DNA of 64,000 bases from an uncultured Vampirovibrionales bacterium (GCA_964390635.1 CAYMIG010000004.1:69439-133438); one strand, 5' to 3'; counted from the first letter of the stretch, positions 13,186 through 56,451 are shown. Notes: generated by a model not told the origin, from the letters alone. Numbers and translations are program-made.

Positions 13186-13868
13186 GGCAGACGGCTTTCC
13201 GCCAGCACCTTGCCATCCCGCATGCGGATGGTGCGATCCGCCGTGGCCGCGGCTTCTTGGCTATGGGTGGCCATTACCACCGTCTGCCCGTGGTTTCGGC
13301 AAAGCGCCGAGAGCAGGGCCAATACGCTGTGCCCGTTTTCGCTGTCCAGGTTGCCGGTGGGCTCGTCGGCCAGAATCAGGGCGGGTTGGTGCACCAGGGC
13401 CCGGGCGATGGCCACCCGCTGCATCTCTCCCCCGGACAGCTGGGCGGGGTAAAAATCGGCCCGGTGGCTCATGCCCACCTGGGCCAGCATGGCGGCCACC
13501 GCCTGATTTCGGGCATCTGGGGTGTATTGGGGGGACAGGGCCAGGGGCAGGGCCACGTTTTCGCTCACCGTCAGGGTATTGAGCAGGTTGAAAAACTGGA
13601 ACACAAAGCCTAGCCGGGTACGGCGCAGGCGGGTGCGTTCGGCCTCGCCGGCGGCAAAGGGATCCACCCCGTCCAGCAGCACCTGGCCTTCGGTGGGGGT
13701 GTCGATGGTGCCCAAAATGTTCAGCAAGGTGCTCTTGCCGCAGCCGGAAGGGCCCATCAGCGCCACGAACTCTCCGGCCCCGATATCCAGGGACACGTGA
13801 TCCAGGGCCAGCACCTGGTGCTCGCCGTAGCGTTTGCAAAGGTCGATGACTTGGATGCGGGAGGCCAT
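13182..13868 (-). CDS. ABC transporter ATP-binding protein (LolD/MacB class)
   Basis: Walker A GPSGCGKST, signature LSGGEMQRVAIARAL, Walker B LILADEPTGNLD. Confidence 0.95.
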   Translation of the reverse strand: MASRIQVIDLCKRYGEHQVLALDHVSLDIGAGEFVALMGPSGCGKSTLLNILGTIDTPTEGQVLLDGVDPFAAGEAERTRLRRTRLGFVFQFFNLLNTLTVSENVALPLALSPQYTPDARNQAVAAMLAQVGMSHRADFYPAQLSGGEMQRVAIARALVHQPALILADEPTGNLDSENGHSVLALLSALCRNHGQTVVMATHSQEAAATADRTIRMRDGKVLAESRLP

Positions 13869-13877
13869 GCCCCTACC

Positions 13878-14366
13878 TTAGCACGAGGGGGGCGCGGCGT
13901 CGTGCAGCAGGGCCAGCGCCTGCCGGATGTGGGCCTGGGCGTCCAGGGCCCCGGAAAATACCAGCCGGATGATGCCTTCCGGGTCGATGACGTAGGTGGT
14001 TCTTCCCGGCAGCCAAAACAGGAAGGGGGGCACCCCGAAGCACCGGCGGGCCTCATTGCCCGGATCGCTGTAGAGCGCAAACGGCAACTGGTGCTGGCTG
14101 GCGAAACGGCGGTGGGATTCGGGCGGATCCCCGCTGATGCCGATAACGTCCGCGCCGACGGCCTGGAAGGCGGTGTAATGATCCCGAAAGCCGCAGACTT
14201 CCTCTGTGCAAACCCGGGTATTGTCCCGGGGATAGAAAAAGACCACCAGCCAGCGTCCCGGTTGGCGCAGATCTGCCAGGCGGCAGGCCTGGCCGTCCCC
14301 GTCCCGCAGCATCACGTGTTCGGGCAGCCGATCGCCCACCTGCAGCGGGGGCATGCTAACCCCCAA
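13878..14366 (-). CDS. bcp: peroxiredoxin (Bcp / AhpC-TSA family)
   Basis: VVFFYPRDNTRVCTEEVCGFRD contains the peroxidatic Cys motif (PxxxTxxC). Length is typical for the family. Confidence 0.88.
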   Translation of the reverse strand: MGVSMPPLQVGDRLPEHVMLRDGDGQACRLADLRQPGRWLVVFFYPRDNTRVCTEEVCGFRDHYTAFQAVGADVIGISGDPPESHRRFASQHQLPFALYSDPGNEARRCFGVPPFLFWLPGRTTYVIDPEGIIRLVFSGALDAQAHIRQALALLHDAAPPSC

Positions 14367-14928
14367 AACGCTTTATGGTGCGCTTCAGCAGGATCCGCTT
14401 CAGGTCGTCCAGAAACCACAGATCCCAGGGCACCACCCGGCGGGCGGTTTCCTCCAGGTTGGCGTCCCATTCGGCTTCCACCTGGCGTTTGACCGCCTGC
14501 ATGCGGGCCTGGATTTCCGGGCTGAGTTCGGGCGGCTCGCTCATGAACTTGCGGATGTACTGGCTGTAGCCCTCCAGCTCCCCGGCATCCAGCCACAGCC
14601 CCTGGCAGTTCGGGCAGCTGTCAAATACAATCCCGGAGCCCAGGTTCCATTCGTAGCGGTGCAGCGGGGTCTGATCCACCGGGCAACAGCGAGGCGCCAC
14701 CGCTTGCAGGCTTTTTTTCACATCCGCCTTTTCAAAGGCCCCGGGAAAGGCGGCGTCAATCCGTTTCAGGCTGTCGCTGCTTTCGACCGCCTCCAGCTCC
14801 CCTTCATCCAGCCAGACCCCGCATCCCTTGCGGCACAAATCGGCTTCCACCCCGTTAAAATCCAGCGGGGATAAGGGGCTGAAACATACCGGGCAGATAC
14901 GGCTGCTGTGATGGTCGGGCTTGCTCAT
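14356..14928 (-). CDS. tandem TFIIB-type zinc-ribbon protein
   Basis: From the internal start MSKPDHHSS. Two repeats: CPVCFSPL...CRKGCGVWLDEGELE and CCPVDQTPL...CPNCQGLWLDAGELE. Confidence 0.6.
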   Translation of the reverse strand: MSKPDHHSSRICPVCFSPLSPLDFNGVEADLCRKGCGVWLDEGELEAVESSDSLKRIDAAFPGAFEKADVKKSLQAVAPRCCPVDQTPLHRYEWNLGSGIVFDSCPNCQGLWLDAGELEGYSQYIRKFMSEPPELSPEIQARMQAVKRQVEAEWDANLEETARRVVPWDLWFLDDLKRILLKRTIKRFGG

Positions 14929-16912: not shown

Positions 16913-17125
16913 ATGAGAACCACACTGGTGTTGACGCTGGACGATGAGCTGGCCGCTTTCCTGTACAACCGACCGGGCATGGTGGATCCCAGCGCCATGG
17001 TGAACCGGCTGGTGCGCCAGGCCATGGCCCGGCATCCCGAACAGGCCGCTTCCGGGACGGTGTCGGATGGGGTCTCCGTGGCCATGGAGGCCATGCTGGA
17101 TGAAGACACCCCGGCGGCGGGGTAG
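16913..17125 (+). CDS. small ribbon-helix-helix (CopG/Arc-like) protein
   Basis: MRTTLVLTLDDELAAFLYNRPG...VNRLVRQAMARH fits a beta-strand/helix/helix RHH pattern. Acidic tail. Confidence 0.5.
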   Translation: MRTTLVLTLDDELAAFLYNRPGMVDPSAMVNRLVRQAMARHPEQAASGTVSDGVSVAMEAMLDEDTPAAG

Positions 17126-17157: not shown

Positions 17158-17373
17158 ATGGACCATACCGTTGTCATCATCCTGGACAAAGAGGCGGCAG
17201 ACTTTGTGGCCGGGCAAGCGGAATCGCCCAACGATTACATCTGCCGATTGCTGCGGGAGGAAATGCGCCGGGAGAAAGGCCTGCCGGCCAGCCAGCCTTC
17301 TGCGGCGGAGCTGCTGGAAAGCACCCCCGATACATCCGGCTATCCCGAGATGCAGGGCTCCTGGGGAGAGTAG
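17158..17373 (+). CDS. small ribbon-helix-helix (CopG/Arc-like) protein, paralog of the preceding gene
   Basis: MDHTVVIILDKEAADFVAGQAESPNDYICRLLREEMRRE shows the same RHH pattern. Acidic tail. Confidence 0.5.
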   Translation: MDHTVVIILDKEAADFVAGQAESPNDYICRLLREEMRREKGLPASQPSAAELLESTPDTSGYPEMQGSWGE

Positions 17374-26013: not shown

Positions 26014-28359
26014 ATGAGACTGATGGACCAGCAGGTTGGCGTAGTGAAGCCGTTTGCCAAGCCGCAGGGCAAGGAAGTGGGTTTCGGCACCAGCCCGATT
26101 TCAGCCAACCATGCCAAGTCGGTACAATTCGGCGCGTCCACCCGGCCCAAGGCGGGCGGGGTGGATGAGGAGGCCACCGATCTCGGCGCGCTCCTGAGAA
26201 GCCAGTTCAACGCGGCCCAGGCCGTCCAGACTTCCGAAGTCATTACCCTCAACGAGCTTTATCGCAAGTTGCTGCGTGATCCGGCCCCGGCCCTTTCCGC
26301 CCACCAGCGGCTGTACCGGGCCATCATGCATGAAGGCGAGGATGAGCCGGTCAACATCCTGGGGCGCAAGGTGCGCCGCTACAAGGCGTTCACCGGCGGC
26401 GGCAGTGTGACGCTGACCGCCCTGCGCGGGGTGGAAGAAGCCCATGAGCAATTCATGAACCTGTTGCGGGACGGCCTGGACGGCAACGAAAAAGGCCGCC
26501 GCGCCATTCTGCTTCTGGGTGGCCCCGGGAGCGGCAAGACCGAAACCGTGAACATCTGCAAACGCCTGCTGGCGGAATCCACCAAGACCTTCAACCCGGT
26601 CTACTCGCTGAAGTGGGTGGATCTGCCGCCCGAAATCCTGAAGCTGGGCAACGAGGAAGGCGAAGAGGATACCGATCCCAAGCTGAGCAACCCGCTGCTG
26701 CTCTTCCCCCGGGAAGTGCGCCAGGCCATCCAGACCCAGCTGAACGAGGCCTACCAGCAGGAACTGGGCTTCCCGGTCTTCACCCTGACCGAGGACGAGC
26801 TCTCCGGGCGTTCCGCCAAGATTCGCGACCTGCTGGTGAAAAAGTACCTGGAGGAGCTGAAAGAGAGCGAGCCGGATCTGAAGCCGGAAGAAGCCCTGCT
26901 GAAGGCTACCGAGATGGTCATCAACAAGCATGCCCGGGCCCAGCGCGTGGTTTTCCGGGAGGATCAAGGCATCGGCTACGTGGAAGGGAAAGACCCCAAC
27001 CACTTCGACGCCACGGTCATCAGCGGCGACGTGCACCCGGCGGGCGAAGCCCGTTATGGCACCGCCCAGGATCCCCGCGCCTTCGACTACGGTCGCAGCG
27101 ACGTGCTGAAAGGCAACGGCGGTTTGGTGCACTTTGACGAGATGCTGAAAACCAAGGATACCCACCTGCAGTCCCTCTTGCAGATTGCCCAGGAAGGCCG
27201 CGCCAAGGGGGTGGCTGGTATCCGGGAAAAAGTAAACACCGTGCTGCTGGGCACCAGCAACCTGGCTGAGTATCTCAAGCTGCGGCGCAAGGGAGAAAAC
27301 AGCCCGCTGTTTGAACGGATTTCCGTGGTCAAGTTCCGCTACCCGCGCAACTACAAAGAGGAAATCGCCATCTACAAGGATGGGTTCGAAAAGCAGGCCC
27401 GGACGCACAACATCTATATTGCCCCCCATGCCCTGGAAACTGCGGCCCTGTTTGCGGTGATGACCCGTCTGACCATTCCTTCCGGGGAAAGCCGGGGCAT
27501 CCTGCCGGTGAAGGCCGATCTCTACGCCGGAGAGTTCTCCAAGTATCCCAAGGTGCCCCAGGCCACCGTGGCCAAGTGGAAGGCCGAGGGTGAGACCAAC
27601 TACGAGGACGAATCCAAAGAGGAAGGCTTCACCGGGATCAGTACCCGTTTGATGCGGGACTTCCTGACCGCCATGAAGAACAGCCAGTTTATCGGCGATC
27701 CCACCGGCGAGCGCACCCTGGACGGCTTTGCCATGATCAAGGCCCTGCGCTACGAGCTGGAAAACAATGGCCTGTTCAAGCTGCCCAACGTGAAGCTGCG
27801 CCAGGAGTACGAGCAGGTGCTGAACCTGGCCCAGGCCCGTCTGGATGAAGCGGTTTCCGAGGATGTCAAGGCGGTGATCGAGTCCGATGACGAGCAACTG
27901 CAGGCGGCCTTCGAAAACTACACCCGCCGGGTCATCGCCTGGTCCAACCATGCCAACAACGGCATGCCGTTTGACAATACCGATGAGCGCGGCCTGAAGG
28001 AAAACCTGGAGCGCGCCGAGCGCAACATGACCGTGGTCGAGGAGCAGATGGGCCTGAGAACCAAGGAGGCCCGGGAGGCTCACCGTCACCAGTTGGCTTC
28101 CAAGCTGGCCCTGAACCAGATCCAAGGCAAGACCAACGACCTCGACAGCAACCCCAGCCTGAAGAAGGCGTTGCTGGCGGTGCTGACCCGCAGCATGCAG
28201 GTGGGCATCCCCTACGAGGCGCTCAAGACCACCAACCCGGATGCCAAGCAGAAAGAGCACCAGGAGCGGTTCTACACCAAGATGGCCCAGAAAGGCTACA
28301 ACCGGACCGCCGCCCTCAATGCGCTTGAATGCTACCAGCGCGTCTACAACCGGCAGTAA
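26014..28359 (+). CDS. prkA: PrkA/YeaG-family AAA+ protein (paralog 1) with a roughly 70-aa N-terminal extension
   Basis: GGAG sits 11 nt before the ATG. Walker A LLLGGPGSGKTE. GNGGLVHFDEMLKTKDTHLQSLLQIAQEG parallels YeaG ANGGLMEFVEMFK...LLTATQEG. Confidence 0.9.
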   Translation: MRLMDQQVGVVKPFAKPQGKEVGFGTSPISANHAKSVQFGASTRPKAGGVDEEATDLGALLRSQFNAAQAVQTSEVITLNELYRKLLRDPAPALSAHQRLYRAIMHEGEDEPVNILGRKVRRYKAFTGGGSVTLTALRGVEEAHEQFMNLLRDGLDGNEKGRRAILLLGGPGSGKTETVNICKRLLAESTKTFNPVYSLKWVDLPPEILKLGNEEGEEDTDPKLSNPLLLFPREVRQAIQTQLNEAYQQELGFPVFTLTEDELSGRSAKIRDLLVKKYLEELKESEPDLKPEEALLKATEMVINKHARAQRVVFREDQGIGYVEGKDPNHFDATVISGDVHPAGEARYGTAQDPRAFDYGRSDVLKGNGGLVHFDEMLKTKDTHLQSLLQIAQEGRAKGVAGIREKVNTVLLGTSNLAEYLKLRRKGENSPLFERISVVKFRYPRNYKEEIAIYKDGFEKQARTHNIYIAPHALETAALFAVMTRLTIPSGESRGILPVKADLYAGEFSKYPKVPQATVAKWKAEGETNYEDESKEEGFTGISTRLMRDFLTAMKNSQFIGDPTGERTLDGFAMIKALRYELENNGLFKLPNVKLRQEYEQVLNLAQARLDEAVSEDVKAVIESDDEQLQAAFENYTRRVIAWSNHANNGMPFDNTDERGLKENLERAERNMTVVEEQMGLRTKEAREAHRHQLASKLALNQIQGKTNDLDSNPSLKKALLAVLTRSMQVGIPYEALKTTNPDAKQKEHQERFYTKMAQKGYNRTAALNALECYQRVYNRQ

Positions 28360-28384
28360 GCGACTTGTATAAGGAATCCTCCCT

Positions 28385-30394
28385 GTGATGAATGTCCTTC
28401 ATCCGGCAGCCCGTCAGTTAACTGCCGTCACGCCCGTCCCCCGGTTCCGGGGCAACCCTGCCCAGCCGCTCCAGCCCGGAGCGGTCTCCCAGGCAGCCGC
28501 CGCCCCCGAACGGGTTCTGGCAACCCTCGGCGCCCACCAGGCCTATGCCGCCCCGCAAATCCAGTTTGCAAGCCGCATGCCCCGGTTCGGCAACCAGCAG
28601 GACGCGCAGTTTGACTACGGCGACGATGAGATGCGGGACTTCTACCTGAACAACGATCCGCGTCATTCCCCGCGCTGGCTGGCGGCCAACGCGGATGCGG
28701 ATCGCCTGCTGGCCGCCATGCAGGCCAAGGGCATCACCCCGGAGGATACCGTGTTCATGATTGCCAGCCCGGCCAAGCTGTTGCAGGTGGCCGCCCGTGG
28801 CCTGCCCAACATGCCCCCGGACTGGATCCATGGCATGAGCCTGTATGACCTGATGCAGAACGAGACCCATGGCCTGGGCCATATCTACGAACTGGTGCTC
28901 TCCACCAAGCCGTCGGTGGCCTACCTGCTGAACACCAACACCCCGCTTGAAACCCGGTTGGTGATTGCCCACGTATACGGCCATACCAGCTTTTCCCGCA
29001 TGAACAAGCTGTTCCGGGATACCCGCCCGGATGAAATCCTGCACATCGTGGGTGAGCAGCGCAACGTGACCCGGGATCTGCTGGGGGACATGACCATTCC
29101 CCGCGACCCCGACAGCCAGCGCAACCCGGTGAAGGAGTTCATGAACAAGGTGCACTCCATCGACATGCTGATTGACCTGGGGGCAGAACGCCATCCCATC
29201 CAGGACTTCGGCATTACCGAATACGTGCCGGCCTTGCACCAGGAAAAAGCCGGGGATCGCAAGGACGCGCCCCCGCCGCGCACCCTGGATCCCAAGGATC
29301 GTTACCTCTACTCCGACGAGGAGTGGACCGAGATGGAAAAACAATTGCGCCGGGAAAACACCCCCCGCCGCAAGAAGTTCCCCACCGGCATCGATCGCGA
29401 CATCCTGGGCTTCCTGGCCAAGCACTCCCCGGTGCTGGCCCCCTGGCAGCGGCAGATTCTGCAAATGCAGCGGGAACGCAGCTACTTCTTCTCGCCCATT
29501 ATGCGCACCAAGATTATGAACGAGGGCTGGGCCTCCTTCTGGCACACCAAGCTGCTGCAGGAAGATCCGGAAACCAACCTGGACGACGCCTCGGAACTGG
29601 CGGCGGTTAATGCCGGGGTGATTGCCCCCTCGCGGCAAAGCCTCAACCCCTACTGGCTGGGCTTCAACATCTGGCAAGACCTCTACATCAAGGCGGGTTT
29701 GGGACTGCCCCTGGACGAGGACACCCCGCCGCAATTCATCCACGAAACCATGACCAGCATCCGTACCAAGCCGGGCTTCGACGAGGCCCGGGCCATCCAG
29801 ACCCTGGCCAAGGTGGTGGAGAACGAGGAAGACTTCACCTTTATCGAGAAGTACCTCACCCCGGATCTGTGCGAGAAGCTCAAGCTCTACACCATCGAAA
29901 CCCAGGAAAACCCCTATGCCCACTATTATGGCGGGCCTCGGGAATACCAGTACATCAAGTCCAAGCAGGCCGAGGAAGTCCGCGGCGCCATCCTGGAAGG
30001 GTTGCGTTACGGCGGGCGTCCCCAGCTGGAAGTGGTGGACGGCAACTTCGAGGACAACGGGGAGTTGCTCATCAACCACAGCTACTCCTCCGACGCCCTG
30101 AACGTGGCCCACACCAAGAAGACCTTGCAGATCCTGGCCTCGATGTGGGGACGTCCGGTGCATATCGATACCTATATCCCGGAAGAGGACGAAGAAGACG
30201 ATTACGACCCCTACCGGGGCCGCTTTGGCATCCCGCCCACGCAGCCTCCGGAGCCAAAGCCCAAGAAGGAGCCGGAACTGGTGGCGGTGCGCTATACCGC
30301 CGATCCCAAGACCGGCGAGGTACGGACCTTCTTGCGGGAAGATCGCAAGGCCACCCGTCGCATTACCGTCAATGAAGACGGCACCATCAGTTAG
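28385..30394 (+). CDS. spoVR: SpoVR/YcgB-family protein with an N-terminal extension
   Basis: IYELVLSTKPSVAYLLNTNTPLETRLVIAHVYGHTSF, MNEGWASFWHTKLL and NPYWLGFNIWQD are family hallmarks. 25-nt gap after prkA. Confidence 0.9.
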   Translation: MMNVLHPAARQLTAVTPVPRFRGNPAQPLQPGAVSQAAAAPERVLATLGAHQAYAAPQIQFASRMPRFGNQQDAQFDYGDDEMRDFYLNNDPRHSPRWLAANADADRLLAAMQAKGITPEDTVFMIASPAKLLQVAARGLPNMPPDWIHGMSLYDLMQNETHGLGHIYELVLSTKPSVAYLLNTNTPLETRLVIAHVYGHTSFSRMNKLFRDTRPDEILHIVGEQRNVTRDLLGDMTIPRDPDSQRNPVKEFMNKVHSIDMLIDLGAERHPIQDFGITEYVPALHQEKAGDRKDAPPPRTLDPKDRYLYSDEEWTEMEKQLRRENTPRRKKFPTGIDRDILGFLAKHSPVLAPWQRQILQMQRERSYFFSPIMRTKIMNEGWASFWHTKLLQEDPETNLDDASELAAVNAGVIAPSRQSLNPYWLGFNIWQDLYIKAGLGLPLDEDTPPQFIHETMTSIRTKPGFDEARAIQTLAKVVENEEDFTFIEKYLTPDLCEKLKLYTIETQENPYAHYYGGPREYQYIKSKQAEEVRGAILEGLRYGGRPQLEVVDGNFEDNGELLINHSYSSDALNVAHTKKTLQILASMWGRPVHIDTYIPEEDEEDDYDPYRGRFGIPPTQPPEPKPKKEPELVAVRYTADPKTGEVRTFLREDRKATRRITVNEDGTIS

Positions 30395-30416
30395 TAGGTT
30401 GGAGCCAGGGAAGAAG

Positions 30417-31916
30417 ATGACAGAAATCAAGCACAATCCAGCGCAAGCCCTGTTGGGACGGCTCCCGGTGGCCGGTATCCGCCAGAGCCAGCAACCCCTG
30501 TTCGCCGGGGTGCGCTTTAATGCCGGCCCGACCGCCGATACCTTGCAGTTGTCCCGTCCGGCCCGCCCGCCCCAGTTTGGCGGCCTGCCCTGGATGACCC
30601 GCAATCCCATGTTTTCGCCCTCGCACCTGCAGGCCACCGAGGCTGACTTTGGCGACCTGCGCCGGCATGATCCCGATCTCGACGAGTGGATGGACATGCT
30701 GGACGGCAAGACCACCGAGGATTACCTGCTGGATCAGATTGTCAACGACAACATCCAGGTGGATTCCGACGGCAGCATTGTCATTAACAAGCCCCGCATC
30801 GATATCCCCATCATCCACCACGGCAACAAGTCCGGTGGCGGCGGTGGTGGCGTCGGCGCCGGGGAAGGGGAGGAAGGCGATCCGGTCAATGGCCAGCCGG
30901 GTGAAGAGCCCGGGGAAGGCAGCGAGGCCGGTAAAGACAAAGGGAACCCACCTTTGAAGCCCTGGCAGCAAAGATTCTCGCCCTCCGAAATTGCCCGCCT
31001 GGTGGGCAGCCAGTTTGGCCTGCCCTTTATGCGCCCCTCCGACGGGGAGTCCAACCGGGTGCGGGTGACCAAGGACGCCACCAAGGAAGTGCCGCCCGGC
31101 GACCTGCACCGCAAGAAAACCTTCCGTAACGCCGTGCGCCGGGTGGTGGGCGGCGCCATCGCCCAGGGCGAGCAGCCCGACTTCAGCGAGGTCTTCCCGA
31201 TCCGTCCCGACCGGGTGTACAAGGCCATCGAGCATGAGCCCCAGCCCAACCTGAAGGTGGCGGTCATCTACGTGGCCGACGTGTCCGGCTCCGTGGACGA
31301 GAACCTGCGAACCTTCACCCGCAACGCCAACCGCTTTGTGTCCTACCCGCTGAAGTACAAGTACGGCCAGCTGGCCGCCGAGCTGGCGGGCGAGGACTAC
31401 TCCGACGCCGAATTCTTTGGCAAAGACGGTACCGAGGAAGGTGGCCTGAAAGAGCGCTTCATCGTCTACACCACCGAGGCCAACGAAACCACCGAGGAGG
31501 ACTTCTACAAAACCACCCAGAGCGGCGGCACGCAGTGTTCCTCCGGCTTCAAGAAGGCCCAGGAGATTATCGAGGAAGAATACCCGCCCTCCGATGGCTG
31601 GAACGTGTATGTGTACCATTTCTCCGATGGCGACAACTGGGGCGACGACAACGCCCAGTCCGTGAAGATCATGAAAGAGATGATCAGCAGCGGCGTGCGC
31701 TACATCGGCAGCGTGGATCTGGGGAAACCCAACAACCGGCCCAGCAACTTCCGCAGCGGCATCGATGGCGCCTTCAAGGGCGATCCGCATGTGGGCACCA
31801 TCGGCGTGCCGCGCAAGGGCCAATACAGCCTGGATGACTATAAGGGCGTAATCTCTACGTTCCTGCCCCCGCAAAAAGAGGAACCCGAATGGTATGATAC
31901 CGACGTCGCTGCCTAA
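30417..31916 (+). CDS. yeaH: YeaH/YhbH-family (DUF444, vWA-like) protein with an N-terminal extension
   Basis: Start chosen at the ATG with GGAG 12 nt upstream. HHGNKSGGGGGGVGAGEGEEG, VIYVADVSGSVDE (MIDAS-like), VYVYHFSDGDNWGDDN. Confidence 0.88.
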   Translation: MTEIKHNPAQALLGRLPVAGIRQSQQPLFAGVRFNAGPTADTLQLSRPARPPQFGGLPWMTRNPMFSPSHLQATEADFGDLRRHDPDLDEWMDMLDGKTTEDYLLDQIVNDNIQVDSDGSIVINKPRIDIPIIHHGNKSGGGGGGVGAGEGEEGDPVNGQPGEEPGEGSEAGKDKGNPPLKPWQQRFSPSEIARLVGSQFGLPFMRPSDGESNRVRVTKDATKEVPPGDLHRKKTFRNAVRRVVGGAIAQGEQPDFSEVFPIRPDRVYKAIEHEPQPNLKVAVIYVADVSGSVDENLRTFTRNANRFVSYPLKYKYGQLAAELAGEDYSDAEFFGKDGTEEGGLKERFIVYTTEANETTEEDFYKTTQSGGTQCSSGFKKAQEIIEEEYPPSDGWNVYVYHFSDGDNWGDDNAQSVKIMKEMISSGVRYIGSVDLGKPNNRPSNFRSGIDGAFKGDPHVGTIGVPRKGQYSLDDYKGVISTFLPPQKEEPEWYDTDVAA

Positions 31917-34446
31917 ATTCCAAAGCCTCGCTCCCGCCGCCAAGCATTTGCCAATGGCCCTGCCGGCGCCTTCCGCCCAGCAGCTTCCAGTGTTCGGTGC
32001 CTCGGACTCCGCCCAGGCACCCTCCAGCAAGCTGCTGCAGGCCTATGCCGGGGTGCGCTTTGCCGGCACCGAGAGCGCCCTGCCGCCGGATCGCATGACC
32101 TTCGACGAGTTCATGGCCATGGTCAAGGAGGACCCCAAGAAATACATTCCCACCGCCCGCCAGTACTTTGTCAGCGGCCTGCAGTCCTGGGGCACCCACA
32201 AGGAAGAGGTGCTGGGCGAAGAGGTGAACGTGTACGACTTCCCCACCCGGCCCTGGACGCCGCCCAGCGTGCAGGACAAGGATGAATTCTACGGCCAGGA
32301 GCTGGTCATCAACCAGATCGTGGAAACCCTGAACAAGCTCTCCAAGAGCCGCACCCCGTATCTCATCCAGCTGGTGGGCCCCAACGGGGTGGGCAAGAGC
32401 CAGCTGCTCAGCGTGATGCAGGAAGCCATGGAAGTGTTCTCCAGGCAGCCCGGTGGCGAGCGCTACACGTTCAGCGTGATTGTGGCCGACCGCAAGAAAG
32501 GCACCCCGGTGGCCTTCCCCACCATGGCTTCGGCTGGGGCCAAGAAGAAATCCTCCCTGCCCAAGGAATCCGAAATCAGCTTCCGCCTGCCTTCGCCGCT
32601 GGCCGTCAACCCGCTGTTCCTGCTGACCGAGCACGAGCGCAGCGCCCTCATCCAGGAGCTCAAGGCTAAGGGCAAGCTGGACAAGGACGAAAACTTCGAC
32701 TTCTTCATCAAGGGCGGCGCCCTGGACAAGCGTTCCCAGAAAGCCATCGATGCCTTGCGCCGGGCTTATGACGGGGACATGGACAAGGTCTTCCGGGAGC
32801 ACATCCAGGTGGAGCGCTACGACTTCCCCCGGGTGATTATTCCGGCTGGCGAAAACCCGCATGCCCAGGTGCAGCACCTGGGTGGTGAAGTCACCTGGCG
32901 TAGCGCCCCGCAATCCATTGTCAACTCGGGCGCCTTGTTCGAGTACATGGGGTACCTGCCCCGGGCCAACGGCGGCATGATCAACATCGACGACATGGGC
33001 CGGGATCGCCGGGCCGATTATGCCTACCTGCTGGAAACCGCCCAGACCGGTAAGCTGATGCTGCATTCGCCGGTGGACGGCAGTATCGAGGAGCCGGTGG
33101 ATATCATCTTCTTCTCTACCGCCAACCCCGATGGCCTGAACATGCTGGCCCAGCAAGGTAACTTCCGGGCCCTGAAGGAGCGCATCATCACCATTGCCAT
33201 GCCGCATGAGCGGCGCTTCCAGAACGAGGCCAAGGTACACGCCTCCCTGTTCCGGCAGGCCGAGCAAAATGGCCGCAAGATTGCCCCGCATGTGCAGGAC
33301 ATTTACGCCCTGTGGGCCACCATGACCCGCCTGCTGCCCGCGGATCCGGCCTCCCCGGACTACCGCAACCTGCAGGACTCCGACAAGTTCAAGCGGGCCC
33401 TGGTCAAGCTGGATCCCCTGAAAAAGGCCCTGCTGTACCAGGGGGTGGAAGACCTGAATGCCGCGGAAACCAACCCCGACGCCGCCGGTTACCTCACCCC
33501 CTCCGAACAGTCCCTGTTGCGCCGCAACCTGCGGGTGATTGCCAGCGAGCACCAGCAGAGCGTGGGTGAAACCAACTATACCCATTACGAAGGCGGGCTG
33601 GGGGTTTCCGCCCGTGACGGCGACAAAATCCTGGTGCCCCAGATTATTGATGCTCACAAAGGCCAGCCCCTGACCGTGCTGGACGTGTTCGAGACCCTGG
33701 CCAAGTACATCAAGTCCGAGCCCCTGTGGATGTCCGAGCGCCACAAGTTCCTGGGCGACTACTTCAAGGATGCCAAGGGCCAGGTGGATCAGACGCTCAT
33801 GAAGCGCGCGATGCCGTCCGAGGTGGAACTGCTGAAGCTGGCCGAAGACTACGCCCGCCGCCAGTTCAAGCAGGAAGTGCGCGAGGCGGTGGAAGTGTAC
33901 CAGACCGAGGACGCCCATATCCGCACCATCCAGAAATACCTGGAGCACGTGCGGGCGGCGACCGCCACCGAGGCGGAAGAAAAAGAGGTGAGCCCGGAAT
34001 TCCGCGACGATCCCAACAAGAAAGAGCCCAACCAGAAGTTCATGCGCGACATCGAGGACGTGTTCGGCATTTCCCACACCCCCGAGGACCGTACCCGCAT
34101 CCGGGCACGCCTGACCGGCTGGAACCGCGCCGAGAACCCGGCCCAGAACATCAAGCGGCTGTTTGAAAACGAGCTGAACAAGATGCGCAAGTACGACGAA
34201 ATCACATACAACGAGCGCATCCTGCAATTCCTGCGCGACACGGCCATGCTGCAAACCAACCCAGGCATCCTGGAGCGGGAAGCCGCCGAAGTGACCGAGC
34301 GCAAAGAGCAGATCGATCGCATGCACACTGCGGTGGCCCGCCTGGGGGCCATCGGCTACCCCGCCGAATCGCTGCCCAAGCTGCTGGGTTGGGCCTTTGG
34401 CAAGGGTTACATTTCCGATGAAAGCCTGGAGGTATACGGTTCATGA
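31894..34446 (+). CDS. PrkA/YeaG-family AAA+ protein (divergent paralog 2) with an N-terminal extension
   Basis: Walker A LVGPNGVGKSQL. ANGGMINIDDMGRDRRADYAYLLETAQTGK. Its start overlaps the yeaH-like stop by 23 nt (an alternative ATG lies about 60 nt downstream). Confidence 0.88.
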   Translation: MIPTSLPKFQSLAPAAKHLPMALPAPSAQQLPVFGASDSAQAPSSKLLQAYAGVRFAGTESALPPDRMTFDEFMAMVKEDPKKYIPTARQYFVSGLQSWGTHKEEVLGEEVNVYDFPTRPWTPPSVQDKDEFYGQELVINQIVETLNKLSKSRTPYLIQLVGPNGVGKSQLLSVMQEAMEVFSRQPGGERYTFSVIVADRKKGTPVAFPTMASAGAKKKSSLPKESEISFRLPSPLAVNPLFLLTEHERSALIQELKAKGKLDKDENFDFFIKGGALDKRSQKAIDALRRAYDGDMDKVFREHIQVERYDFPRVIIPAGENPHAQVQHLGGEVTWRSAPQSIVNSGALFEYMGYLPRANGGMINIDDMGRDRRADYAYLLETAQTGKLMLHSPVDGSIEEPVDIIFFSTANPDGLNMLAQQGNFRALKERIITIAMPHERRFQNEAKVHASLFRQAEQNGRKIAPHVQDIYALWATMTRLLPADPASPDYRNLQDSDKFKRALVKLDPLKKALLYQGVEDLNAAETNPDAAGYLTPSEQSLLRRNLRVIASEHQQSVGETNYTHYEGGLGVSARDGDKILVPQIIDAHKGQPLTVLDVFETLAKYIKSEPLWMSERHKFLGDYFKDAKGQVDQTLMKRAMPSEVELLKLAEDYARRQFKQEVREAVEVYQTEDAHIRTIQKYLEHVRAATATEAEEKEVSPEFRDDPNKKEPNQKFMRDIEDVFGISHTPEDRTRIRARLTGWNRAENPAQNIKRLFENELNKMRKYDEITYNERILQFLRDTAMLQTNPGILEREAAEVTERKEQIDRMHTAVARLGAIGYPAESLPKLLGWAFGKGYISDESLEVYGS

Positions 34447-35504
34447 CATCCATTACCCGCTTCGGGCAGCTTCCCTCGCTTCGTCAACCTGCCGTAAAGT
34501 TCGCCCAGGCTTTGCCTGTGGCCGCTGCCCCTGCCGAGGGCACCCCGGCAGCGACCCCGGCGCCGGTGGGATCCGCCGAACTGACCGCGGCGCTGAAGGC
34601 CCGCAACAATATCGTCCATCTGCCTACCTTTGCCGGTCAGGCGGTGCGCTTTGGTGCCGAACGCCTGCATATCAGCCAGCGGGCCGGTCACCCGGTCTTC
34701 ATCGCCCCCGGCTACGAGGACCAGTACATGGCTGCCCTGGAGCAGGAGATTGCCGGCAAGCGCCAGGCGCCCCAGATGGCCGGGGTAGTGGAGGAGATCG
34801 ACGGCCAGAAAATGATGGTGGATCTCGATACCCACTTCTTCAACCAGGGCATCGTGTCGGTGGAAGGCCCGGTGACCGATGGCATGGCCGCGATGCTCAC
34901 CCGCCAGATCCGTTACCTGGTCAGCAAACGCCAGGCCGAGTCCAGCAACGAGCCCATCCTGATGACCATCAACAGCCCGGGGGGATCCATGTTCGCCATG
35001 AACGCCATTACGGACGCCATGGAAAACGCCCGCCGCACCGAGGTTAACGGTGAGCCGCTCAAAATCATCGCCACCATCACCGGCATGGCGGCCAGCGCGG
35101 GTTCCATCATCGCCGCCACCGCATCAGAAGTGTACATGACCCCCAACGCCATGTATATGCTGCATGCCCCCATTTCCGGTACCCAGGGCGAGTACCACGG
35201 CATGGTGCAGTCCATGAAGCTGACCCAGCGCCTGTGGCAAAAGGCCCTGGACATCTACCGCAAGAAGATGGGCTACAAGCAGTCCGATCTGGCCAAGTGG
35301 ACCCAGATCGGGGAGCGCTGGCTGGATCCCTACCAGGCCATGAAAGTGGGCCTGTGTGAGGGCATTATGGATTCCTACGACCATATTATCCCGCGGGAAG
35401 AGGCCCTGGGCCTTTCCAAGCCCTTCGAAAAGGGCAAGACCGACCTGTTCGAAGTGGATCCTGCCCACAAGGACGATCTGGTGGCCGAGGACCGGGACGT
35501 TTAG
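34443..35504 (+). CDS. Clp/S49-fold serine protease-like protein with N- and C-terminal extensions
   Basis: ATGA overlap with the preceding stop. ILMTINSPGGSMFAMNAI, TGMAASAGSIIAA (nucleophile Ser), AMYMLHAPISG (His). By-eye alignment to ClpP places Glu (GERW) where the Asp normally sits. Confidence 0.8.
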   Translation: MTSITRFGQLPSLRQPAVKFAQALPVAAAPAEGTPAATPAPVGSAELTAALKARNNIVHLPTFAGQAVRFGAERLHISQRAGHPVFIAPGYEDQYMAALEQEIAGKRQAPQMAGVVEEIDGQKMMVDLDTHFFNQGIVSVEGPVTDGMAAMLTRQIRYLVSKRQAESSNEPILMTINSPGGSMFAMNAITDAMENARRTEVNGEPLKIIATITGMAASAGSIIAATASEVYMTPNAMYMLHAPISGTQGEYHGMVQSMKLTQRLWQKALDIYRKKMGYKQSDLAKWTQIGERWLDPYQAMKVGLCEGIMDSYDHIIPREEALGLSKPFEKGKTDLFEVDPAHKDDLVAEDRDV

Positions 35505-36201: not shown

Positions 36202-37074
36202 ATGGTTTCACCAAGCGGTTTTGGCATGTCCCCGTTCCAGATGATGCCCATGATGGGTGCATCGCCCATGGGCTTTTCCGGCAGTCCCATGGCAAGCCCG
36301 GGGATGGGAATGGCGTCTCCCTTTGGCTTTGGCCAGAATATGGCCCAGCCGGGCGGTGGCATGGGGCAGGGGGATCCTGCCCAGATGATGTTTCAGATGA
36401 TGGGCATGATGATGATGATGATGATGTCCTTCATGATGATGCTGATGTCTATGTTGCAGCAGTCGGGGCAATCCCCGGGTAGCCCGGGCGGCCTGGCGGA
36501 CATGAACGTCCCGGGTGAGCGCCTTGGCAACGGCGGTGGCGGAGGCGGTGAAGGCGGCGGAGGCGGTAACTTTGCGGCCCTTAGCGATCGCGCGGTGCCC
36601 ACCACCCTGGAAAGCATGAATGTCGGCAACAACGCCGACCTGCGTAACAGCCTGGCGGCCATCGCCGAGGATCCTGACGGGGCCCGCTTGCTGGAGGCGG
36701 TACAGGCCAAGGGCATCCGTATTCGGGTGGGCGATCCGGGCGGCCCCGAGGTGCAAGGCCTCTTTACCGGTAACGAGATTATCGTGCGGGATCCCCGCAA
36801 CGTCAAAACCCTGGTGCACGAGATGGTGCATGCCGCCACCAATGGGGATGGCAACTCCAAAAGTGAGGAAGGTCGCGCCGACGTGATTGGTACCCGGGTG
36901 GCCCGCCGCATTGCCCAGAAGGAAGGCCTCGATCCGGGCAGCATTGGCGCCCGGGAGGGATCGGACCAGCACATCTTCGAAACCAAGAAGCAGGTGGACG
37001 GCTACCGTGGCCTTTCTGAGGAGAATGGCTCCCGGCAGACCCTGGCCCACCTGGGGGTGCAGGTGAACGTTTAG
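36202..37074 (+). CDS. Met/Gly-rich (harpin-like) N-terminal module fused to an HExxH zincin-like domain
   Basis: GAGGTGGG immediately precedes the ATG. N-terminus SPFQMMPMMGASPMGFSGSPM...MMFQMMGMMMMMMMSFMMMLMSMLQQ, then GNGGGGGGEGGGGGN. C-terminal VKTLVHEMVHAATNGDG. No signal peptide. Confidence 0.7.
   Translation: MVSPSGFGMSPFQMMPMMGASPMGFSGSPMASPGMGMASPFGFGQNMAQPGGGMGQGDPAQMMFQMMGMMMMMMMSFMMMLMSMLQQSGQSPGSPGGLADMNVPGERLGNGGGGGGEGGGGGNFAALSDRAVPTTLESMNVGNNADLRNSLAAIAEDPDGARLLEAVQAKGIRIRVGDPGGPEVQGLFTGNEIIVRDPRNVKTLVHEMVHAATNGDGNSKSEEGRADVIGTRVARRIAQKEGLDPGSIGAREGSDQHIFETKKQVDGYRGLSEENGSRQTLAHLGVQVNV
36406..36426 (+). repeat. (ATG)7 trinucleotide microsatellite encoding Met7
   Basis: catgatgatgatgatgatgatgtcc read directly; more ATG-rich sequence follows (ttcatgatgatgctgatg). 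Confidence 0.95.
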
Positions 37075-47876: not shown

Positions 47877-49610
47877 TCAGGGGGCGACCCGGCTGGCGGC
47901 GGTGGCGGCTTCCTCTGCGGCGACCTGGGGGGCCGGGGGCAGGTTAGCCAGCTCGAACCAGCGGTAATCCACTTGGGGGAAGGGATTGTCGATGTCTTCC
48001 ACCGCATGCAGGCGCTTTTCGTCAATGCTGCCGGCCTCCAGCATATCCAGCAGCAGGTGGAAGCGTTCCACGTGCGACTCGAACCGTTCCACGGCGTAAT
48101 CCTTGGCCTGGAAGGTGGTCACCAGGAAGGGCCAATCGCTGCTTTGCAGCAGCAGCAGCTCCCGCAGGGCCTGGTTCAGCAGGCGGATTGTCAGGGGGTC
48201 GCTTTCCTGGCGGTAAGCCGCCACCACGGCCCGCATGCGGGCTTCCGCCTTATGGATGATGGGCCACATCCAGTCGGTATGCTGGTTATGCCACACCCAG
48301 TAGTGCCCGCCCTGGCCCCAGGTGCTTTCCGGCAGCTGGATGGCTTCCTTGGGGGTGTGGTTGGCCAGGTACTCCCCGGCGCTTTCTACCGCCACGCTGT
48401 CGCTTTGGTGCAGGCTGCGGATGACATGCTTCAGCCAGGCAATGCCTTCAAACCACCAGTGCCCGTAAAGCTCGGTGTCGAAGGAGACCATGACCAGGCA
48501 ATGCTCGCCCATGCGCGCCGATTCGGTCTTGACCAGATCCTGCACCAGGGAGACGAAGTGGTCGGCATGCATCTTGGTTTGGTTGAAGGCCAGGATGGGG
48601 TCGTAGAGCATCTTGTCGCCCAGCTCGCAGTCCTTGCCGGTGAGCCGCCAATACTTGACCCCGGACTGGTCGTCCCGCTTGTGGAATTCGCGGTACAGCC
48701 CGTCGCCCGGGTAGCCGTGCGCCGCCGACCACACCTGGAAGCTTGCCCGGTTGTTGCGGCCCACCACCGCCACCGGGTAGTTCTTCAGCCAGTAGGCCTG
48801 ATGCGTGGTCAGCCCGGTGGGGCCCCGGTTGGGCAGGGGAATGTACTGGATGTCCCGGTATACCCCGAAATCCCGGCGCACTTCCGAGGTGGTGCTGCCC
48901 TCGATGGCGTGGAACTCGGTAAAGAAGTACTGGATGCCGTTCTCGTACAGGAAGGCCTCGATGGCCGGGCGCAGGCGGGGTTCGCCGCTGTCCACGTCCG
49001 GCATGTCCTTGGCCGGGCGATAGGCGCATTCCGGCAGCCAGATGCCCTTGGGCGCCCGCCCGAAGTGTTTTTTATAGGCCTCCACCCCGGTCTTAATCTG
49101 GGCCTGGATGCTTTCATCGGTGCCCAGCAGGGGTAAAAAGCCGTGGGTGGCCGCCGAGGTGGTAATCTCCACGCAGCCTTCGTCTTGCAGAACCTTAAAG
49201 GCCTGCACCAGGTTCTTGTCGTACTTGTGCAGGAAGTGATCCAAGATCTTGCTGTAGTGCTCCTCGTACCAGTCCGCCAGGAAGGCCAGATGCTCGGAAT
49301 GGGGAACCTTGGGGTTGGGGTAGCGGGCCACGTCCTCTTCCACGGAGGCCAGCCGGGTTTGCATATACTGGATGAACCCGTTTTGCAGGTGCTCATCAGC
49401 CAGCTGCTCGGCCAGGATGGGCGTGATGCCAACGGTCACATGAGCCTTCACCCCTTCTTCCCGCAGCTCGTACAAGGCATCCAGCAGCGGGATGTAGGTT
49501 TCCATCATGCAGTCGTAAAGGTTTTCCTCCCCAAAGGGCCACATGCCGGCCTTGCGGTAGAAGGGCAGGTGGCTGTGGAGCATTAAAACGAAAGATCCGG
49601 CTTGGCTCAT
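47877..49610 (-). CDS. GH57-family 1,4-alpha-glucan branching enzyme
   Basis: FVLMLHSHLPFYRKAGMWPFGEENLYDCMMETYIPLL, TSAATHGFLPLL, WLPECAY and FDTELYGHWWFEG are GH57 branching-enzyme blocks. Confidence 0.9.
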   Translation of the reverse strand: MSQAGSFVLMLHSHLPFYRKAGMWPFGEENLYDCMMETYIPLLDALYELREEGVKAHVTVGITPILAEQLADEHLQNGFIQYMQTRLASVEEDVARYPNPKVPHSEHLAFLADWYEEHYSKILDHFLHKYDKNLVQAFKVLQDEGCVEITTSAATHGFLPLLGTDESIQAQIKTGVEAYKKHFGRAPKGIWLPECAYRPAKDMPDVDSGEPRLRPAIEAFLYENGIQYFFTEFHAIEGSTTSEVRRDFGVYRDIQYIPLPNRGPTGLTTHQAYWLKNYPVAVVGRNNRASFQVWSAAHGYPGDGLYREFHKRDDQSGVKYWRLTGKDCELGDKMLYDPILAFNQTKMHADHFVSLVQDLVKTESARMGEHCLVMVSFDTELYGHWWFEGIAWLKHVIRSLHQSDSVAVESAGEYLANHTPKEAIQLPESTWGQGGHYWVWHNQHTDWMWPIIHKAEARMRAVVAAYRQESDPLTIRLLNQALRELLLLQSSDWPFLVTTFQAKDYAVERFESHVERFHLLLDMLEAGSIDEKRLHAVEDIDNPFPQVDYRWFELANLPPAPQVAAEEAATAASRVAP

Positions 49611-56385: not shown

Positions 56386-56451
56386 GGTTTATAATGGTTT
56401 CAAACCCTTGAGTTGGGAACGCGAATAGAGAGGCACGCAAACCAGTCAGCT

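Follow-up and report, generated by a model that had tools for sequence, protein, structure and literature searches.

Widely distributed among bacteria and archaea, the PrkA/YeaG-YeaH-SpoVR/YcgB module is linked to starvation survival and sporulation. In other settings, namely the Rubisco-binding motif of the Chlamydomonas pyrenoid and carboxysomal CsoS2, a repeated short motif on disordered stretches acts as the ticket into one multivalent assembly. The mechanism of the PrkA module itself is unsolved, and even the activity of PrkA is disputed (PMC13001217). The cargo-loading domains of Family 2 encapsulins, found for example on 2-methylisoborneol synthase and cysteine desulfurase, are N-terminal, about 30-200 amino acids (aa) long, disordered and Pro/Gly/Ala-rich, and are poorly conserved save for short, sometimes repeated motifs (PMC11550324). 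Here a window of 64,000 nucleotides (nt), at 62% GC, from an uncultured Vampirovibrionales bacterium (GCA_964390635.1 CAYMIG010000004.1:69439-133438), related to the predatory cyanobacterium Vampirovibrio, is analysed together with 13-23 kb around each orthologous locus; the window means this whole stretch of about 64 kb. It contains a stress-response operon for an expanded form of the module in which all five products begin with an N-terminal extension, or head, bearing a common short motif, h-[RQHK]-F-[GSA]-[small] (h, hydrophobic). The favoured reading, held tentatively and with a probability of roughly 0.42, is that the heads are a multivalent docking or 'sticker' tag which co-assembles the expanded PrkA-SpoVR-YeaH module, with the glycogen-debranching enzyme GlgX as a client.

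The operon (window 26014-35504) consists of five tightly packed genes in one orientation, encoding PrkA1, a SpoVR-like protein, a YeaH/DUF444 protein, PrkA2 and a ClpP-fold protease (hereafter Clp-like). The genes and their extensions, the latter delimited by ortholog anchors, are as follows.

26014-28359, + strand: PrkA1, AAA+ protein of the PrkA/YeaG family, 781 aa (Pfam AAA_PrkA and PrkA C-terminal domain)
26014-26232, + strand: PrkA1 extension, aa 1-73
28385-30394, + strand: SpoVR/YcgB-like protein, 669 aa (Pfam SpoVR, residues 123-531 matching profile positions 29-401; NCBIfam SpoVR family)
28385-28621, + strand: SpoVR-like extension, aa 1-79
30417-31916, + strand: YeaH/YhbH-like DUF444 protein, 499 aa (Pfam DUF444; NCBIfam PRK05325 profile position 38 at residue 117)
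30417-30668, + strand: DUF444 extension, aa 1-84
31894-34446, + strand: PrkA2, divergent second PrkA-family AAA+ protein, 850 aa (Pfam AAA_PrkA and PrkA)
31894-32091, + strand: PrkA2 extension, aa 1-66
34443-35504, + strand: Clp-like ClpP-fold serine protease, 353 aa (Pfam CLP_protease, residues 124-310; ClpP core from about aa 112)
34443-34697, + strand: Clp-like extension, aa 1-85

Three of the five genes belong to the same families and stand in the same order as in the canonical PrkA-YeaH-SpoVR module, but the second divergent PrkA, the ClpP-fold protease and the shared heads are additions, and the canonical proteins start at the domain. An earlier sequence-only reading of this DNA had named the five product families, all of which are confirmed by Pfam, with domain scores above the gathering score (AAA_PrkA/PrkA 123.6/90.6, DUF444 143 and SpoVR 244.4 bits). 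The NCBIfam equivalog cutoffs are missed (100 vs 576 bits for YeaG, 142 vs 679 for YcgB and 181 vs 388 for the YeaH type); judged by these profile scores, the PrkA, YeaH and SpoVR proteins of the operon are divergent family members rather than equivalogs. The ortholog anchors place 73, 79, 84, 66 and 85 aa ahead of the respective family domains, in keeping with the heads first described, and the statement that canonical relatives lack them also holds: E. coli YeaG residue 8 corresponds to PrkA1 residue 62, the E. coli ClpP start falls near residue 108 of the Clp-like protein, and in profile coordinates the SpoVR and DUF444 families begin some 80-95 aa into the window proteins. Adjacent genes are spaced by +25, +22, -23 and -4 nt, the -23 being a 23-nt overlap of DUF444 and PrkA2. 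This tight translational coupling implies co-production of the five proteins and, since the genes overlap or abut, leaves no room for untranslated leaders, as had been argued.

Shine-Dalgarno (SD)-like sequences (GGAG, AGGA, GAGGA, GGAGG) lie upstream of every operon start, both in the window and in the orthologous loci; the ggag of PrkA1 sits 11 nt upstream of its ATG. No consistent SD accompanies the internal Met codons at the domain borders in the window or orthologs, and these were ruled out as true starts for that reason. A mechanical list of open reading frames (ORFs) had the DUF444 gene beginning at TTG 30225, an over-extension that overlaps the SpoVR end by 170 nt; the SD (ggag..gggaag upstream) and the orthologs favour ATG 30417 as its true start, and the TTG was discarded. 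The GC fraction at third codon positions (GC3) is 0.69-0.79 in the extensions and 0.83-0.85 in the remainder of the genes, so that the third positions of the heads are of the coding type, as previously noticed. Comparison of the window with an 88%-identical strain (P0159, locus L012) gives a ratio of nonsynonymous to synonymous substitution rates (dN/dS) of 0.26 for the Clp-like head vs 0.12 for the domain. The four motif segments of the Clp-like head are all identical between the two strains, and the linkers separating them have diverged and carry an in-frame 3-codon indel. The SDs at the starts, the dN/dS values and the retention of motifs within diverged linkers together indicate that the heads are made and that selection is concentrated on the motifs, a pattern typical of linear motifs within disordered regions. 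On this comparative evidence, the N-terminal extensions are translated and under purifying selection.

Ala (16%), Pro (11%) and Gln (9%) are over-represented in the heads, with Gly at 8%, and Asp, Glu, Lys, Ile, Asn, Tyr and Trp are under-represented; the net charge is +1 to +8 in most cases, so that the heads are mildly basic and acid-poor. Hydrophobic runs are of 5 residues or fewer in all 31 heads, short of the 7-10 or more that the core of a Sec, Tat or lipoprotein signal peptide requires, which excludes such signals, and no twin-arginine (Tat, RRxFLK) consensus occurs in the heads. In the AlphaFold2 (AF2) model of the Clp-like protein, the predicted local distance difference test score (pLDDT) is <50 for residues 1-91 and >90 for the core, with no contact between head and core in cis; the head contains a single 9-residue, low-confidence helix (aa 44-52), which corresponds to an L-x-x-A-L element. 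The disorder prediction that had been proposed as a check thus agrees with the original description, and the heads are predicted to be intrinsically disordered. When curated models were compared with six heads at E <= 10, there was no Pfam match and one meaningless NCBIfam match (E = 0.15), consistent with the earlier inability to name a motif family.

The core motif is often accompanied by an upstream short helix-prone L-x-x-A-[YL] element and occurs in 1-4 copies per head, example peptides being SSKLLQAYAGVRFAGTE and AVRFGAE. All 19 of the 19 motif strings quoted in the sequence-only reading were found in the genes to which they had been assigned. Sites were scored with a 5-column core position-specific scoring matrix (PSSM) trained on orthologs from other genomes only, at a threshold of 8 bits; a 12-column version was dropped because it over-penalised the flanks and missed true sites. 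The operon sites are listed below.

26122-26136, + strand: PrkA1 principal motif VQFGA (F39), 10.7 bits with the independent PSSM
26047-26061, + strand: PrkA1 weaker copy KPFAK
26077-26091, + strand: PrkA1 weaker copy VGFGT
26200-26214, + strand: PrkA1 weaker copy SQFNA
28538-28573, + strand: SpoVR composite motif QAYAAPQIQFAS, 9.6 bits
28580-28594, + strand: SpoVR motif PRFGN, 13.2 bits
30495-30524, + strand: DUF444 motif PLFAGVRFNA
30570-30584, + strand: DUF444 motif PQFGG, 12.6 bits
31987-32001, + strand: PrkA2 weaker motif PVFGA
32032-32067, + strand: PrkA2 composite motif LLQAYAGVRFAG, aa 47-58, 10.5 bits with the 5-column PSSM
34455-34469, + strand: Clp-like motif TRFGQ, 11.4 bits
34494-34508, + strand: Clp-like motif VKFAQ, 8.8 bits
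34623-34658, + strand: Clp-like motif PTFAGQAVRFGA, 11.6 bits

That the motif exceeds what composition alone would produce is borne out by shuffle tests in the window and in 30 extensions. Within the 408 extension residues of the window, Phe is followed by G, A or S in 15 of 21 cases, vs 18 of 96 in the remainder of the same proteins, and [RKQH]F[GAS] is observed 8 times vs 1.27 expected, a count reached in 0 of 20,000 composition-preserving shuffles. Across six lineages, all 30 of 30 extensions contain at least one h-[RQHK]-F-[GSA], vs 3.2 expected and a shuffle maximum of 10 in 5000. PSSM matches number 8 in 600 aa of operon N-termini, 1 in the 2552 aa that make up the remainder of the operon proteins and 9 in the 15,733 aa of the other 48 window proteins, a density in the operon N-termini about 23-fold above that of the other window proteins. 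The loci span 47-63% GC, so base composition is no explanation for the motif. A profile-profile comparison of the PrkA2 and SpoVR heads matches their RF[GA] cores with P = 0.009, a modest value that is unsurprising given the shortness of the element. The information content of the core, about 11-14 bits, is far below the roughly 39 bits that a global search with a motif-only profile would need in 2.4e11 residues, and FG-repeat proteins would dominate the matches of such a search.

Conservation among orthologs follows the same pattern. At the place of PrkA1 VQFGA the orthologs have LRFG, VHFG, LRFA, LHFS and VRFG, the DUF444 orthologs have IKFG, PRFG, LQFG, LQFG and VRFS, and the SpoVR head pattern A-Y-[AVS]-x-[PL]...[RK]FG is kept in 6 of 6 orthologs. 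In the PrkA2 composite, L-L-x-x-Y-x-G-h-[RHY]-F-[GAS], residues L48, Y51, G53 and F56 are invariant among 7 orthologs (35-58% identity to the window protein). Motif-to-domain distance ranges from 6 to 95 aa across proteins and orthologs; for PrkA2 the motif lies 11 residues from the domain border in the window and 11-55 across orthologs. A C-terminal GRFG in SpoVR was considered as a further motif and is taken as chance, since orthologs do not conserve it. The C-terminal peptide of PrkA2, LLGWAFGKGYISD (window 34386-34424), is strongly kept in the closest three lineages, and the others retain it in a looser form.

The sequence-only reading had confined the feature to 26014-34760, which proved too narrow: GlgX, encoded about 16.5 kb upstream of the operon, is a sixth carrier, a finding that fits the accompanying idea of 'other clients'. 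Its gene and sites are the following.

7054-9495, + strand: GlgX glycogen-debranching enzyme, 813 aa (TIGR02100 glgX position 2 at residue 111; CBM48 after the head); the public gene call also starts at 7054
7054-7383, + strand: GlgX extension, about 110 aa, of the same type as the operon heads
7087-7116, + strand: further copy SRFEQPRFAR
7195-7227, + strand: motif AYVGVNPLFGQ
7276-7290, + strand: motif PRFGQ, 12.7 bits, the best non-operon PSSM match in the window
7369-7383, + strand: further copy LRFAP

The head reads through the strings SRFEQPRFARQ, ALCQAYVGVNPLFGQT, LPRFGQG and TLRFAPG. Exactly 3 sites for AY[AV][GA][VP] exist in the window's approximately 18,900 aa of protein, at GlgX aa 48, SpoVR aa 53 and PrkA2 aa 50; all three lie about 50 residues into a head, preceded by Gln and followed within a few residues by F-[GA]. 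Normal GlgX lacks the head, since among the 150 best relatives 140 begin their alignment within their own first 35 residues, at query residues 91-137 (about 20 of the 150 are truncated or partial and were left uninspected). A protein search with the GlgX head alone gave 14 candidates sharing short words and 0 at E <= 10, and a representative search with full GlgX gave relatives of <=59% identity, nearly all headless; one of them (P0078) has a single LPRFAG and was judged uninformative. No other head was found in about 55 neighbouring genes, including a window extension of about 9 kb (L015).

The operon is also present in five other Vampirovibrionales lineages, with 27-69% identity to the window proteins and a locus GC of 47-63%. 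Only 7 PrkA2 homologs were found in a collection of 5.8 billion proteins, and their contigs carry the same operon throughout, with a second Clp-like gene in one lineage (L002) and no adjacent one in another (L005). A genome-collection scan with the PrkA2 alignment returned three loci, labelled 'uncultured Vampirovibrionales bacterium', 'Vampirovibrionaceae bacterium' and, for one metagenome-assembled genome (MAG), Coleofasciculaceae cyanobacterium; neither the same scan with PrkA2 alone nor a metagenome scan with the PrkA2 alignment gave a match. By these searches, the operon with heads appears only in Vampirovibrionales among the collections covered. At 42.5 kb, the contig of the MAG labelled 'Coleofasciculaceae cyanobacterium' (L009, DATNPJ010000026.1) is all but identical to the JGI contig of L007; the other relatives are labelled Vampirovibrionales, and the Coleofasciculaceae label is probably a case of mis-binning or mislabelling. 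The only flanking genes shared between lineages are a pair of ribbon-helix-helix-like ORFs, common to two of them, and an aldehyde dehydrogenase gene, common to another two. The ORFs of the pair, about 70 aa each and ribbon-helix-helix-like by eye (TLTLDDELAAFL...), lie at 16913-17125 and 17158-17373 (+) in the window, about 9 kb upstream of the operon, and at 3193-3441 and 3451-3696 in L007, directly upstream of PrkA1; they may be a linked regulator or an antitoxin-like pair.

In form, the Family 2 encapsulin cargo-loading domain is the closest known analogue of the heads, both having an N-terminal, disordered, Pro/Gly/Ala-rich head on ordinary enzymes and an address shared by a set of proteins. 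The heads differ in that they carry h-[RQHK]-F-[GSA], while GPxGLGT and LPGPP are absent from all of them; no HK97-fold shell gene stands in or beside the operon in six lineages; and the carriers are a five-gene module that includes large AAA+ proteins. An N-terminal position had been put forward as part of what separates the heads from cargo-loading peptides, but Family 2 domains are already N-terminal (PMC11550324), so that it is the motif and the lack of an adjacent shell gene that set the heads apart. The encapsulation peptide of bacterial microcompartments (BMCs) is a terminal amphipathic helix of about 18 residues with shell genes nearby, whereas the Clp-like head has only a predicted 9-residue helix of low confidence and the loci have no BMC domain. 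With the pyrenoid and CsoS2 systems, the operon has in common one short motif on unrelated, functionally linked proteins; there, however, the receptor is known (Rubisco or shell proteins), and the heads are strictly N-terminal and their motif sequence is unrelated. What is new here would therefore be the motif and the set of carriers, recruitment by a shared motif on disordered extensions being known.

The IGF/LGF loops of ClpX, ClpA and ClpC offer another, looser likeness, a hydrophobic-x-Phe-Gly on a flexible AAA+ segment beside a ClpP-fold gene (E. coli ClpX GIGFGAT vs VGFGTS and VQFGAS in PrkA1). In the heads, however, Arg, Gln, His or Lys takes the place of the middle Gly, the position is N-terminal rather than an internal loop, and the motif is also found on non-ATPases and on the protease itself; the [LIV]-G-[FL] type occurs once, as VGFG in PrkA1, and the ClpC of the window genome has a loop of its own, PFGFS. 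The loop-binding pocket of E. coli ClpP, which we take to consist of Y60, Y62, F82, M92 and L114, is replaced at these positions in the Clp-like protein and variable among orthologs, and docking of the motif on the Clp-like barrel by IGF-loop mimicry was set aside as unsupported because the pocket positions are not conserved.

According to the favoured reading, the heads would be disordered N-terminal tethers with 1-4 motif copies each, and the motif would be read by one partner common to all carriers, which may be a folded receptor or the tails themselves. In the tail-to-tail option, Arg/aromatic stickers followed by small residues would be set in Pro/Ala/Gln spacers. The carriers (two AAA+ rings and a ClpP-type barrel) are probably oligomers, which would render the tails multivalent, so that the expanded module may be held as one higher-order body to which GlgX is recruited as a client. 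We infer the docking role of the motif, the common partner and the co-assembly outcome; four features suggest a linear motif acting in trans from a flexible tether: the presence of one motif on five unrelated folds and on GlgX, which argues for a common reader rather than a fold-specific element, the variable distance between motif and domain, as expected of a tether, the retention of motifs within diverging linkers, and the predicted disorder. Of the shared targeting or docking peptide originally proposed, the translated head, its predicted disorder and its common motif in six lineages stand, which sustains that interpretation in part; a common assembly, compartment or condensate remains a proposal: no receptor or shell gene is conserved beside the six loci, and a degron or propeptide fits the same data.

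Several observations weigh against co-assembly. No receptor gene was found at the six loci, across which no flanking gene is conserved. The GlgX head is seen in this genome only, no headed ortholog having been found. Many chains in orthologs have only one strong motif copy, so that the tags would be multivalent only through the assumed oligomerisation. The AF2 model of PrkA2, built from 7 sequences, has a mean pLDDT of 56 with the N-terminal half <50, too poor to judge docking in cis. Finally, the same data fit 'delivery to a protease' as well as 'assembly'.

The core of the AF2 model of the Clp-like protein matches ClpP structures in Foldseek with a target-normalised template modelling score (TM-score) of 0.90-0.93, and every ortholog but the second L002 paralog keeps the catalytic Ser and His. 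At the Asp position that paralog has A, and the five catalytically intact orthologs read E/A/E/D/D. The best NCBIfam match is a ClpP-related head maturation protease (91 bits, below the cutoff of 120), and ClpP profiles score no better than those of head-maturation proteases; unlike the phage enzymes, however, the Clp-like gene has no capsid or scaffold gene nearby. In L002, tandem Clp-like genes (12801-13913 and 13943-14842) follow PrkA2, and the second has Glu and Asn in place of the catalytic Ser and His and a head motif PKFSG; going by these substitutions, it is an inactive ClpR-like paralog. Like a ClpP propeptide, the Clp-like head precedes the point that matches the mature E. coli ClpP N-terminus, but it is about 110 aa long vs 14 aa in E. 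coli and its motif is shared with four or five other proteins. Segments of the Clp-like protein at aa 45-66 (window 34575-34640) and of the L002 Clp heads, ALKARNNIVHLPTFAG and RDALVAQQPRFGG, recall cyanobacterial ssrA tags, which we take to read ANNIVKFARKDALVAA; this is a lead only, and no tmRNA gene was found in the window or loci. The C-termini of some Clp-like orthologs (L006 and L007; P0161 and P0162) form Arg/Lys/Pro-rich tails (e.g. ...KAPSRRRAPKAKTPTALPDPPQTESKK), and the window protein has an acidic tail.

The heads may instead be a degron, a delivery tag or a propeptide, serving as initiation or recognition tags for an AAA+ protease (PrkA1/PrkA2 rings with the ClpP-fold barrel, or the housekeeping Clp) and leading to joint turnover or to activation by head removal, a possibility that is somewhat unlikely. 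Heads co-occur with the two additions to the operon, PrkA2 and a ClpP-fold protease with intact Ser and His; inactive ClpR-like paralogs such as that of L002 are typical of ring-forming Clp barrels; and in E. coli ClpP an autoprocessed propeptide stands at the place of the Clp-like head. The nearest non-ClpP profiles are those of phage head-maturation proteases, which process N-terminal domains, and AAA+ unfoldases need a disordered start, which the predicted disorder of the heads would supply. YeaG/YeaH/YcgB and glycogen catabolism are both starvation-type functions, as would be the PrkA module and GlgX here, and the heads would resemble the N-terminal ClpXP degron of the starvation protein Dps. 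PrkA, moreover, has been described as a member of the classical AAA+ clade that has pore loops but lacks protease activity itself (PMC13001217), making a partner protease plausible. Against this, the principal motif is mostly found 30-70 residues in, and not at the N-terminus itself, multiple copies and long linkers of conserved length would be unusual for a degron, the locus without a Clp-like gene after PrkA2 (L005) has the motif in all four heads, and the presumed IGF-pocket positions are conserved neither with E. coli nor among orthologs. A broader proposal, rather unlikely in our estimation, is that the heads form a Vampirovibrionales-specific address code, in which an 'A-Y ... h-R-F-G' signature would send starvation and glycogen proteins (the PrkA module, GlgX and further clients) to one destination, e.g. 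a condensate or protein-based compartment within the bacterium.

A cargo-loading or translocation address, for a compartment encoded elsewhere (an encapsulin-like shell or an organelle-like body) or for export toward prey, is quite unlikely. Its form matches the Family 2 cargo-loading domains (PMC11550324), the unlinked enzyme GlgX carries the same head, and the acid-poor, mildly basic, Ala/Pro/Ser/Gln-rich composition would suit it; for the type species of the order, delivery of hydrolytic enzymes into Chlorella, including starch- and glycogen-degrading ones, has been proposed (PMC4451040). However, no shell (encapsulin, BMC) or secretion gene was found in or beside the operon at the six loci, no HK97-fold Pfam family occurs among their called genes or in eight scanned window ORFs (seven previously unassigned; five returned no family), and GPxGLGT is absent. 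Nor is there a Sec/Tat-type hydrophobic core; type IV secretion signals normally sit at the C-terminus, which is not consistently basic in these proteins; and export of two AAA+ ATPases of 780-850 aa with a cytoplasmic stress module is hard to rationalise. The extreme version of the address code, with algal prey as destination on the grounds of transit-peptide-like composition and the proposed predation, is highly improbable. That the heads are cis-regulatory tails, each folding on its own domain for auto-inhibition or stabilisation, with a motif shared by convergence or copying and no common partner, seems very unlikely: the PrkA2 motif is invariant and close to the domain border, where all PrkA2 orthologs have an invariant Met exactly at the head/domain junction (M68, window 32095-32097), but five or six unrelated folds would need as many binding sites, the Clp-like model shows no contact in cis and the motif-domain distance is highly variable. 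An artefact of untranslated leaders, mis-called starts or chance low complexity has a probability close to negligible. Pro/Ala-rich ORF extensions do arise easily at 62% GC, and the DUF444 gene was indeed over-extended in the mechanical list, yet the SDs of the upstream starts in all lineages and their inconsistency at internal Met codons, the dN/dS of 0.26 with the in-frame indel, an amino-acid motif kept across 47-63% GC and the agreement of the shuffle tests all speak against it, as does the lack of room for leaders.

Elsewhere in the window, a second glycogen-related enzyme (47877-49610, - strand) has a GH57-like N-terminus by eye and no head, and a PilZ-domain-containing, BcsA-like cellulose synthase and a TPR/BcsC-like protein (53530-60480, + strand) are both headless. 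Two adjacent proteins (36208-37074 and 37123-38220, + strand) contain extremely Met/Gly/Pro-rich low-complexity regions (e.g. MMFQMMGMMMMMMMSFMMMLMSML and MMATVVTTMMMVVTTMMQM) with no family match for these regions; the second has a weak GH19 (chitinase/lysozyme-like) domain.

One conserved tag on every component is natural evidence that the components of the PrkA-YeaH-SpoVR module act together physically. A peptide of 5-12 residues would then provide a handle on the partner, on the assembly and on any cooperation between PrkA rings and a protease. If it is true that the tag marks further clients like GlgX, it would be a bacterial targeting signal of a new kind, from the non-photosynthetic sister group of cyanobacteria.

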